NCBI RefSeq assembly: GCF_003018255.1
Contig: NZ_CP027440.1
Strand: one strand, 5' to 3'
DNA from: Escherichia coli
GTDB taxonomy: Bacteria > Pseudomonadota > Gammaproteobacteria > Enterobacterales > Enterobacteriaceae
Length of the DNA stretch: 64,000 nucleotides
Both the position numbers and the translations under genes were made by a program. A model generated the notes under the pieces. The model had not been told where the DNA came from. It did no database searches and saw only the letters and a list, made by a program, of their open reading frames with translations. This document shows, in pieces, positions 11,461 to 62,470 of this stretch; the stretch's first letter is position 1; each line of letters starts with the position of its first letter.

Positions 11461-11612
11461 ATGCCGGATGCGACGCTTGACGCGTCTTATCAGGCCTACA
11501 AGTCCGTTGAAAATGCTGGTTTTGTAGGCTGGATAAGGCGTTCACGCCGCATCCGGCAGCCGTGCCCAAATGCCTGATGCGACGCTTGACGCGTCTTATC
11601 AGGCCTACAATC
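11461..11612. repeat. REP/BIME cluster (three REP units, alternating orientation)
   Basis: gccggatgcgacgcttgacgcgtcttatcaggcctaca at 11463-11500 and near-identical copy at 11572-11610; inverted REP gtaggctggataaggcgttcacgccgcatccggcagc at 11524-11560. Confidence 0.8.
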
Positions 11613-15887: not shown

Positions 15888-16123
15888 ACTCTCTCCTTAT
15901 AACCAATTGTTCTTGTTTTGTTAACATTGATAACAATTCGGTCAGTCTGACAGAGGGCGTCCGCGAGTCGAAATGATTTATCTGAGGAAGAAAAGCCAAA
16001 AAAAGCATAAAAAAAGCGCAATAAGAAAACGTTTGCTATTTATTGCCGCAGGTCAATTCCCTTTTGGTCCGAACTCGCACATAATACGCCCCCGGTTTGC
16101 ACACCGGGAATCCAGGAGAGTTC

Positions 16124-17134
16124 ATGTACTACCCCTTCGTTCGTAAAGCCCTTTTCCAGCTCGATCCAGAGCGCGCTCATGAGTTTACTTTTCAGCAATT
16201 ACGCCGTATTACCGGAACGCCGTTTGAAGCACTGGTGCGGCAGAAAGTGCCTGCGAAACCTGTTAACTGCATGGGCCTGACGTTTAAAAATCCGCTTGGT
16301 CTGGCAGCCGGTCTTGATAAAGACGGGGAGTGCATTGACGCGTTAGGCGCGATGGGATTTGGATCGATCGAGATCGGTACCGTCACGCCACGTCCCCAGC
16401 CAGGTAATGACAAGCCGCGTCTCTTTCGTCTGGTAGATGCCGAAGGTTTGATCAACCGTATGGGCTTTAATAATCTTGGCGTTGATAACCTCGTAGAGAA
16501 CGTAAAAAAAGCCCATTATGACGGCGTTCTGGGTATTAACATCGGCAAAAATAAAGATACGCCGGTGGAGCAGGGTAAAGATGACTATCTGATTTGTATG
16601 GAAAAAATCTATGCCTATGCGGGATATATCGCCATCAATATTTCATCGCCAAATACCCCAGGATTACGCACACTGCAATATGGCGAAGCGCTGGATGATC
16701 TCTTAACCGCGATTAAAAATAAGCAAAATGATTTGCAAGCGATGCACCATAAATATGTGCCGATCGCAGTGAAGATCGCGCCGGATCTTTCTGAAGAAGA
16801 ATTGATCCAGGTTGCCGATAGTTTAGTTCGCCATAATATTGATGGCGTGATTGCAACCAATACCACGCTCGATCGTTCTCTGGTTCAGGGAATGAAAAAT
16901 TGTGATCAAACCGGTGGCTTAAGTGGTCGTCCGCTTCAGTTAAAAAGCACAGAAATTATTCGCCGCTTGTCACAGGAATTAAACGGTCGCTTACCGATCA
17001 TCGGTGTTGGCGGCATTGATTCGGTTATCGCTGCGCGTGAAAAGATTGCTGCGGGGGCCTCACTGGTGCAAATTTATTCTGGTTTTATTTTTAAAGGTCC
17101 GCCGCTGATTAAAGAAATCGTTACCCATATCTAA
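16124..17134 (+). CDS. pyrD: dihydroorotate dehydrogenase (quinone)
   Basis: ORF track 16097..17134; start at ATG 16124 giving [21 protein letters not shown]. Confidence 0.95.
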
Positions 17135-18956: not shown

Positions 18957-19199
18957 GGTGCGGTCCTCAAATGAAAATAAGCCCTCAACTTTATGACATG
19001 ACGCGCTTATTAGCTATAATGCGCAACAATTTTCTTAGCGCCTGTCCCATTAGGCTATTTTATTTGTCAGTTTGGCCCAGGGAAGTGCTCGAAATCCTCA
19101 CGTACTTGTGTACGCTCCGGTTTCTCCGCGCTGTCCATGTCCAGACTGACTGCAACAATTACGCCTACTGCGGTAGGCTCTTAGAGTAAAAGTGACGAT

Positions 19200-30325: not shown

Positions 30326-30356
30326 AAAAAAAACCCCGCAGCAGCGGGGTTTTTTA
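30326..30356. terminator. bidirectional terminator between matP and ompA
   Basis: aaaaaaaaccccgc-agca-gcggggtttttta. Confidence 0.8.
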
Positions 30357-39312: not shown

Positions 39313-39768
39313 ATGAAAGAAACCGATATTGCAGGCATTTTAACGTCCACTCACACCATTGCGCTGGTGGGGGCAAGCGACAAACCCGATCGTCCCAGCT
39401 ATCGCGTGATGAAATATCTACTCGACCAGGGGTATCACGTCATTCCTGTTTCGCCAAAAGTTGCCGGCAAAACACTGCTGGGCCAGCAGGGGTATGGCAC
39501 GCTGGCAGACGTTCCGGAAAAAGTCGATATGGTCGATGTTTTCCGTAATTCAGAAGCGGCGTGGGGCGTGGCGCAGGAAGCTATCGCCATTGGTGCGAAA
39601 ACCCTCTGGATGCAACTGGGGGTGATTAATGAGCAAGCGGCAGTGCTGGCGCGTGATGCAGGGCTAAACGTGGTGATGGATCGCTGCCCGGCGATTGAGA
39701 TCCCTCGTCTGGGCCTGGCAAAAAAAAAAAATACCCGGAAGGCGAAAACCTTCCGGGTATGTTTATGA
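39313..39768 (+). CDS. yccU: CoA-binding domain protein YccU; C-terminal tail here reads through an A12 tract
   Basis: ORF track 39232..39768; start at ATG 39313 giving [20 protein letters not shown]; reading frame continues ...[19 protein letters not shown] through the terminator hairpin. Confidence 0.85.
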
Positions 39769-39771
39769 GGA

Positions 39772-40146
<375 letters not shown>

Positions 40147-41337
40147 TTACATGACGCGACAGGCAAACCCTTTCAGATATAGCCCTTCCGGGTAGGTAGC
40201 GATCACCGGATGATCGGCTGCCTGACGGAACTGCTCTATAAATTGTACATCACGACCGGCATCAATTGCGGCATCCGCGATGATTTTCTGAAATAAATCG
40301 CTGGTCATCAGACCGGAACAGGAGAAAGTCAGGAGAACACCGCCTTCATTCAGCAACTGAATCGCCAGCATGTTGATGTCTTTATAACCACGACACGCGC
40401 CCATCAACTGGCTTTTATTCTCAACAAACTTCGGCGGGTCCATCACGATAACGTCAAATTTTTCACCGCGATCGCGATAAGTACGCAGCAATTTAAAGAC
40501 ATCATCACGGACAAACTCAGCCTTGCTCAGATCCAGTTTGTTCAGCTCAACGTTCTGCCGTGCAATATCCAGCGCTTCGTGGGAGGTATCAACGCTGACA
40601 ACCTGGCTGCAACCGCCCATCAATGCCGATACGGCGAAACCACCGGTATAGGAGAAACAGTTAAGTACGCGTTTATTTTCGACGTAGCGGCGGGTAGCCA
40701 GGCGGCTGTCACGCTGGTCCAGGTAGTAGCCCGTTTTGTGTCCGTGCTGAATATCCACCAGCAGTTTCATGCCGTGTTCTTCAATCGGCAGCAGGGCAGG
40801 CGGCAACTCGCCGGTGATGGGGCCCTGAGTCAGCTCCATCCCTTCTTTTTTACGTACCGCGACGTCGCTGCGATCGTAAATAGCACATTCCGGGTACAGC
40901 GTTTGCAGGGCGCTAATTAATGCCGCGCGCTGATACTCTGCGCCAGCACTCAGCAGTTGCAGCACCAGAAAATTACCGAAACGATCGATAGTAATACCCG
41001 GCAGGCCATCAGATTCTCCGGCGATTAAACGATAGCTGTCGAGGCCATCTTTTTGCGCCAGCCAGTCACGCCATTTTTGTGCTTGCTGCAAACGGCGGGT
41101 AAAAAAAGCAATGTCGATAGACTCTGACGGGTCAAACGTCCAGACGCGCGCCCGGATTTGCGAAGCTGGCGAATAAGCGCCGCGTGCTAACCATTTTCCC
41201 TGATGATCAACAATATCGATGGTTTCACCGAGGCTGGCTTTACCTTCCATGCGGGCAACGGCCCCGGAAAAGACCCACGGATGGCGACGAAGTAATGATT
41301 TTTCGCGCCCTTTGGCTAACACTAAACGTACACTCAT
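40147..41337 (-). CDS. rlmI: 23S rRNA m5C1962 methyltransferase RlmI (YccW)
   Basis: 396 aa; [27 protein letters not shown]. Confidence 0.93.
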
Positions 41338-42995: not shown

Positions 42996-43083
42996 TGGCG
43001 GAAGCGCAGAGATTCGAACTCTGGAACCCTTTCGGGTCGCCGGTTTTCAAGACCGGTGCCTTCAACCGCTCGGCCACACTTCC
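42996..43083 (-). tRNA. serT: tRNA-Ser (anticodon UGA), 88 nt including encoded CCA
   Basis: minus strand reads GGAAGTGTGGCCGAGCGGTTGAAGGCACCGGTCTTGAAAACCGG...GGTTCGAATCTCTGCGCTTCCGCCA; long variable arm; anticodon loop CUUGAAA. Confidence 0.95.
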
Positions 43084-53390: not shown

Positions 53391-53405
53391 ACCTTACCTT
53401 CAGTT

Positions 53406-61773: not shown

Positions 61774-62058
61774 ACAAATTCCTTACTGAAAATACTGCGC
61801 TGCACTATACGGGGTTAATAAAATAAAGCCAGCGATATTTAAGACCGCCGGACGGCTAAAATAAAATTTGCTTAATCTCAATTATCATGCGTTAATAGCT
61901 GCGTCGGTTTGAAAGACAGACAGCATACAAAGTAGTTTACTAAAGCAGTTCTCATTATCAGGCATTATCCCCTTCTTTTGAGTCTCTCTCCTGAACACTA
62001 AGTAGTTTCTGTACTAAAGCCCTGTTTGCCGAAAGGCCCAAAATGAAGGAAGTAAAAT

Positions 62059-62271
62059 ATGTCTAATAAAATGACTGGTTTAGTAAAATGGTTTAACGCA
62101 GATAAAGGTTTTGGCTTTATCACTCCTGATGATGGCAGCAAAGACGTTTTCGTCCATTTCACCGCCATCCAGAGCAATGAATTCCGCACGCTGAACGAAA
62201 ATCAGAAAGTTGAATTTTCTATTGAGCAGGGGCAACGTGGTCCCGCGGCAGCGAACGTTGTTACGCTCTAA
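62059..62271 (+). CDS. cspG: cold shock protein CspG
   Basis: 70 aa; [23 protein letters not shown] (RNP1 motif). Confidence 0.95.
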
Positions 62272-62470
62272 GGTTGCCGTTATTACTCCACATCTCCATT
62301 TCCGCTGTCCATGTTGTCATGGTTCACAGTACCGCACATCGGCATTCGATGTGACGGAGCGAAATCCTTTAGGGGCAAAGTGTATTTTTTGTAAATCGAC
62401 GATGATCACCTTTGATAACGTCGCGCTGCAAATACGCACTGACCATGCGCCGCTGGATTTCACAAAATAA
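62237..62470 (+). CDS. ymcE: small Cys-rich protein YmcE; start codon uncertain (non-ATG)
   Basis: ORF track 62210..62470; contains ...[21 protein letters not shown]...; no in-frame ATG near 5' end, GTG at 62237 chosen. Confidence 0.5.

Follow-up and report, generated by a model that had tools for sequence, protein, structure and literature searches.

Organization of the yccU-hspQ junction

The window, a 64,000-nucleotide stretch of Escherichia coli DNA, contains the convergent genes yccU and hspQ with one hairpin between them (Table 1). YccU is a small CoA-binding protein. Its gene starts with the ATG at 39313 and contains 151 sense codons in the window, compared to the normal 137; the 151-aa form is already present in RefSeq under a generic name. 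The initial annotation of this DNA had reported twelve consecutive A at 39720-39731 and a 151-codon yccU frame that runs through the hairpin to a TGA at 39766-39768. The twelve A are seen in the window as reported, and the C-terminus of the frame reads as it was claimed.

Table 1. Coordinates of the features at the yccU-hspQ junction in the window
Feature	Position	Strand	Description
yccU frame	39313..39768	+	151 codons plus TGA; product is RefSeq WP_106905428.1
yccU codons 1-137	39313..39723	+	same as the common 137-aa YccU (WP_000665217.1)
A12 tract	39720..39731	+	A4, the T→A change, A6 and one extra A; decoded as K137-K138-K139 and the first two bases of N140
Ancestral TAA position	39724..39726	+	now AAA; T→A at 39724 compared to lineage mates
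T12 (U-tract), same bases as A12	39720..39731	-	adjoins the 3′ side of the hairpin that follows hspQ; T6-A-T4 in the ancestor
G+C-rich hairpin	39731..39760		12-13 bp, between convergent yccU and hspQ; now within the extended yccU frame
TGA stop, A12 allele	39766..39768	+	6-8 nt 3′ of the hairpin
TAG stop, A11 allele (153 aa)	39773..39775	+	shares bases with the stop codon of hspQ (opposite strand)
hspQ	39772..40089	-	105 aa, convergent with yccU; stop codon 12 nt from the hairpin

No A/T run in the 64-kb window other than the A12 tract is longer than 8, which is the length of the next longest. Runs of at least 12 are expected 0.003 times in 64 kb under an order-0 model and 0.02 times under an order-1 model; the A12 run is beyond chance expectation for a sequence of this size.

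The tract lies downstream of the complete domain of the protein. The CoA_binding_2 domain (PF13380) spans residues 14-130 of YccU and scores 140.4 bits in the 151-aa form, against a Pfam gathering cut-off of 22.8; the score is equal for the 137-, 151- and 153-aa forms. In the Pfam profile search of these three forms, no family match was found past residue 130, and the alignment to the solved ortholog 2DUW stops at K137. Different from the usual ortholog, which is 137 aa in length and ends in ...GLAK, YccU of the window is 14 residues longer. Among the papers that mention YccU, screened by title and abstract, we found no study of its function.

As computed from the sequence, all three frames downstream of the tract are open through the hairpin. 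The A12 frame adds 14 residues with a net charge of +6 before its TGA (39766-39768), and the A11 frame adds 16 residues before its TAG (39773-39775). The third frame continues for ∼120 more codons antisense to hspQ, giving about 258 aa in total. On the plus strand, a 110-codon open frame (39759-40091) lies antisense over most of hspQ; a tract of A10 or A13 would join this frame to yccU, with a product of ∼258 aa.

The normal state of yccU in E. coli and related genera

In six E. coli genomes that we fetched (K-12-derived CJ236, O157:H7, ATCC 25922 and three closer ones), yccU is 414 nt in length and encodes 137 aa. The six genomes read GC(A/C) AAA TAA AAA AAT at the end of the gene: K137 is followed by the TAA stop and six A, and then by the hairpin. 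The initial annotation had taken the K-12 protein to be shorter, about 137 aa with an LGLAK end, and this proved to be right, as CJ236 is annotated with a 414-nt gene and TAA comes next. It had also called for a comparison of the tract and of the sequence after codon 137 across E. coli, and had taken a 151-codon frame in reference genomes as evidence against its reading. The references read A4-T-A6 with TAA after K137, and the 137-aa form is carried by all six of the fetched genomes.

The 137-aa YccU is also found in cluster members from Citrobacter, Kluyvera, Enterobacter, Lelliottia and Klebsiella. With 137 aa as the norm in E. coli and other Enterobacteriaceae, and the 151-aa form on one contig, the suspicion that the extension is strain-specific is borne out. 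When a 701-nt region of the window was searched against complete E. coli genomes, 5425 of 5426 were matched; in each of the 39 full-length matches sampled from this search, the match spanned 700 nt, which is the query minus one base.

Compared to the norm, the window carries two changes within one 12-nt stretch, namely a T→A change in the stop codon and the gain of one A. The initial annotation gave no cause for the tract, which did not arise by expansion of a homopolymer: the T→A change in the stop codon joined two short runs, A4 and A6, into one, and a further A was added. The wild-type K-12 yccU/hspQ pair is like that of the window in its genes, in their order (csgI, yccU, hspQ, rlmI) and in the inter-stop hairpin, and the sequence of the yccU domain in the window is the same as in the most common E. 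coli allele. The difference is that the wild-type TAA is located 5 nt 5′ of the hairpin, inside an A-rich run, whereas the window has AAA at this position and its frame crosses the hairpin.

The hairpin is called as a terminator on the hspQ strand

The hairpin is formed by the inverted repeat ATACCCGGAAGG-(loop)-CCTTCCGGGTAT at 39731-39760, with folding energies of -20.8 kcal/mol on the plus strand and -22.1 kcal/mol on the minus strand. Its 86-nt context folds more stably than 200 of 200 dinucleotide shuffles on both strands (z = -3.5 and -4.1). The consensus scan called an intrinsic terminator on the minus strand only, with 13 pairs, 7 of them G-C, followed by T12; a G+C-rich stem-loop followed by a T/U run, the hallmark of an intrinsic terminator, is thus present on the strand of hspQ. 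On the yccU strand, the tail GTTTATGA is U-poor and falls below the rule of the scan, 5 T in 8; in K-12, the plus-strand tail is ATTTGTTC.

The initial annotation had described the hairpin as the own terminator of yccU. This holds in part: the hairpin does adjoin yccU, lying between the convergent yccU and hspQ, but the consensus scan assigns it to hspQ only. Bidirectional hairpin terminators are common between convergent E. coli genes, and the hairpin may act for yccU too, in a bidirectional manner.

The published tables of curated K-12 Term-seq 3′ ends (PMC7815308 supplements) list none at the hairpin, for either yccU or hspQ. Neither gene is mentioned in the TERMITe supplements, and a literature search on hspQ and terminator returned nothing relevant. 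One Rho termination region of K-12 is antisense to yccU, at 1028165(-), equivalent to ∼39530 of the window (PMC7815308 supplementary file 2); from its position, part of the minus-strand transcription in K-12 would continue beyond the hairpin of hspQ.

Within hspQ itself, the terminator scan found one small hairpin, GGTCGTTGATATCGACC, followed by CGGTTTATTC, at 40008-40024 on the minus strand. Its K-12 equivalent (GGTCGTGGATATCGACCCGGTTT) coincides with an ORF-internal Term-seq 3′ end at 1028644(-) (Adams et al. 2021, PMC7815308), which points to a genuine 3′ end inside the hspQ gene.

The normal yccU stop codon lies inside the U-tract of hspQ, and hence the plus-strand T→A change is at the same time a minus-strand A→U change that leaves the U-tract uninterrupted. 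The change might have been selected through the other strand: conversion of U6-A-U4 to U11-12 would improve hspQ termination and reduce antisense read-through, and the extension of YccU would be a by-product. The changed base is indeed located within the terminator U-tract of the minus strand. However, the U residues that adjoin the stem of a terminator matter most; here these residues are unchanged, and the ancestral tract already had 10 U in 11. The Rho region of K-12 at 1028165(-), which implies transcription past the hspQ hairpin (PMC7815308), lends this explanation some support, but the change is carried by one or two isolates, and thus gives no sign of spread or recurrence. We consider selection for hspQ termination unlikely.

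Distribution of the stop-loss allele

By exact-sequence look-up, the 151-aa protein WP_106905428.1 is found on one contig (4,892,666 bp). The 153-aa product of the A11 allele was identified as EET9566120.1 from the draft assembly GCA_011958185.1, with NCBI as well as Logan among the sources listed for it; for the A12 product, no Logan (read-derived) record was found by the same look-up. The draft assembly and the window share 20,463 aligned positions with 0 mismatch and 1 gap, which is the A tract itself (A11 versus A12). The initial annotation had regarded the tract as prone to slippage, and a tract of A11 in one and A12 in the other of two otherwise identical assemblies agrees with this.

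About 51 contigs carry the hspQ allele of the window, and about 50 carry its helD allele. We read 23 of the ∼51 contigs with the hspQ allele, and 22 of these 23 carry the 137-aa YccU with the TAA stop; four of the 22 were fetched. Over 1,718 bp, two of the fetched contigs, representing 20, depart from the window only by the T→A change at 39724 and by the extra A. In the remaining two, position 40328 of the window is a further difference.

Among complete E. coli genomes, the best match to the A12 allele in its window-type background was 98.8% over 161 nt. A best identity of this value for the 161-nt query means that both differences are always present in the complete genomes. When the T→A allele was placed in a K-12 background, the search returned 0 matches at 100% among 5284 genomes.

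One near-match, from E. coli GF4-3, was considered as the same allele and rejected, because it has A3-T-A7 and the stop is kept. In this genome (NZ_CP053258.1; L009 480-492), A3-T-A7 replaces A3-T-A6 after yccU, so that the hspQ U-tract is one base longer. GF4-3 shows that one-base differences in tract length exist elsewhere too; this one could equally be real or technical.

We also designed ten stop-loss or frameshift YccU products: the substitutions T→C and T→G, one A added ahead of the stop, A10, A13, T→A in four backgrounds (K-12, O157, ATCC 25922 and AVS0967) and one more T→C. None of the ten was found in a collection of 15 billion proteins. A recurrent stop-loss hotspot was dropped as an explanation on account of this absence.

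Taken together, the distribution indicates that this is very probably a very recent yccU stop-loss allele, limited to one sub-branch of one E. coli lineage, a rarely sampled clone. The stop loss is an ordinary strain-level mutation and no new kind of element. It is supported by separately deposited assemblies, whereas the twelfth A comes from one assembly.

Proposed history of the tract and reliability of the assemblies

The most parsimonious history, as read from the compared sequences, would lead from A4-T-A6 to A11 by one substitution and from A11 to A12 by one slip, all within one clone. The ancestral yccU TAA is embedded in the A4-T-A6 that forms, on the opposite strand, the U-tract of the hspQ intrinsic terminator. 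The T→A transversion turned TAA into AAA and joined the two runs as A11, which is the state of the sister isolate with its 153-aa product. The window has one further A, which gives A12 and shifts the frame of the tail, yielding the 151-aa product with its TGA just past the hairpin. Either a genuine replication slip on the new homopolymer or a miscalled tract length in one assembly of the pair would account for the extra A.

Compared to a genome of 98.2% identity, the assembly of the window shows 8 small gap openings in 45 kb, and as judged from gene coordinates none of them besides the tract is in a gene. With so few small gaps and no other in a gene, general sloppiness of the assembly was rejected.

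Several differences from strain 377323_2f were observed outside the locus. Single-base indels occur at 30355, 61556 and 62853, all intergenic by gene coordinates, and positions 53393-53400, between appA and etk, differ by 5 bases (CCTTACC versus C-T----). In the intergenic region of ycbX and rlmKL, ∼135 bp of the window (19040-19175) are missing from strain 377323_2f; this resembles an intergenic repeat element that was gained or lost.

Could the whole feature be an assembly or sequencing artefact, with the strain keeping its normal TAA? The allele is very rare, and errors are frequent in sequence rich in homopolymers, but a T→A substitution is atypical as a homopolymer error. Two assemblies that were deposited separately carry the substitution, the A11 form has both NCBI and Logan among its sources, and the surrounding sequence is otherwise identical in the lineage mates. 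We regard an artefact of this extent as extremely improbable.

The twelfth A is another matter. If the stop loss is real and the twelfth A is a homopolymer length miscall, the true state would be A11 and the product 153 aa. One A is the sole difference from the sister draft over 20.46 kb; the A11 product is sourced from NCBI and Logan, and the A12 product comes from one 4.89-Mb contig and has no record among called genes; and the tract, being the longest homopolymer in the window, is its most error-prone position. Against this, the comparison of 45 kb with a related genome revealed no other homopolymer-type indels in genes, so that the consensus looks accurate. An A11 run is highly prone to genuine +1/-1 replication slips, as is well established, and the complete genome of GF4-3 likewise has a one-A change (A3-T-A7), real or technical. 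On balance, a miscalled twelfth A is a substantial possibility, but not the favored one.

Predicted effects on YccU expression

Transcriptional slippage occurs at runs of ∼9 A or T, and coding sequences avoid such runs (PMC1088944); ribosome sliding in E. coli systems is robust at A11, with little at A9 and A10 (PMC4363877). The tract exceeds both the length for RNA polymerase slippage (∼9) and that for ribosome sliding (at least 11), and its mRNA and protein would be expected to be heterogeneous in frame. With no stop in any of the three frames before the end of the hairpin, three C-terminal forms of YccU are predicted. The added tail itself would be translated terminator sequence, presumably free of conserved function.

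Ribosomes that read the extended frame would have to melt the 3′ hairpin. Where transcription and translation are coupled, melting of such a hairpin by ribosomes makes termination weaker, and the hairpin then no longer protects the transcript against exonucleases. In transcripts ending at the usual 7-9 nt past the stem, the new stop codon would be located at the extreme 3′ end, or would be missing. Part of the YccU product would then go to tmRNA/ArfA release and degradation (PMC3985003, PMC10107115). YccU output is probably lowered, or altered and heterogeneous, rather than improved or endowed with a new function.

Comparison with known stop-loss, slippage and phase-variation systems

The allele is similar to known stop-loss (non-stop) alleles, in which a sense codon replaces the stop and translation enters the 3′ sequence and the hairpin, and also to tmRNA/ArfA substrates, as its next in-frame stop is near the expected end of the transcript (PMC3985003, PMC10107115). 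Different from non-stop mRNAs, the DNA of the window does have in-frame stops, the TGA at 39766-39768 and the TAG at 39773-39775.

Like the A runs at coding slippage sites (Thermus dnaX A9, Shigella mxiE and IS elements; PMC1088944) and in poly(A) sliding (PMC4363877), the tract consists of 11-12 A read as AAA lysine codons. Known functional slippage sites, however, are conserved in homologs and give a defined second product, whereas the tract of the window is confined to one clone and leads into terminator and antisense frames. Neither conservation in homologs nor a conserved or functional polypeptide in an alternative frame, by which programmed slippage is recognized, was found for it.

In the contingency loci of Haemophilus, Neisseria and Campylobacter, phase variation arises from slipped-strand mispairing at homopolymers. 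The tract resembles these loci in its one-base length difference between otherwise identical isolates, a difference that may be technical in origin. It differs from them in being located past a complete domain, where no length switches the gene off, and in being one mutational step old and missing from the other members of the lineage. The on/off behavior that marks phase variation is lacking, with residues 1-137 kept in all three frames.

A functional recoding or phase-variation device, in which slippage or heritable switching of length supplies alternative YccU C-termini that the cell uses, would be consistent with a tract length above the slippage thresholds (PMC4363877, PMC1088944), with the length difference between two clonal isolates and with the three open frames beyond the tract. 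But the tract is missing from 22 of the 23 same-lineage contigs read and from the other genera listed above, and no complete E. coli genome carries it in the two backgrounds searched. Moreover, the tails are translated terminator or antisense sequence without any domain match, and with the tract placed after the complete domain, no frame turns the protein off. Such a device is therefore exceedingly unlikely.

We also considered that A11/A12 randomises the frame during replication, transcription and translation alike, coupling yccU translation to the terminator shared with hspQ, and that it was selected for tuning of YccU or hspQ expression instead of being a neutral lesion. If this were true, there would be three C-terminal isoforms of YccU, one of them a ∼258-aa fusion antisense to hspQ; we consider it very unlikely. 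The feature belongs to known classes, being at once a stop-loss allele, a homopolymer that a point mutation created and a coding A run that is prone to slip. The programmed-slippage and contingency-locus families do not include it, as it lacks their defining features of conservation, a functional alternative product and on/off switching.

Significance of the allele and other features of the window

The allele is present in one or two isolates and carries little weight for biology at large. It is a clean natural case of overlapping constraints at convergent gene ends: with the stop codon inside the U-tract of the opposite terminator, one substitution both removes the stop and creates a slippery homopolymer. 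The allele is also a practical flag for a position at which one clone has been assembled with both A11 and A12, and at which automatic annotation silently accepts the 151- or the 153-aa product. Poly(A) sliding and the entry of ribosomes into a terminator hairpin could be studied in this strain, as a test case in E. coli provided by nature.

Elsewhere in the window, four Rfam matches at gathering score were found: a cspA thermoregulator (61903-62325) upstream of cspG, a PyrD leader (16056-16129), the nucleoid-associated RNA naRNA4 (11527-11605) and a tRNA-Ser (42999-43083). All four are expected as normal for this region of E. coli.
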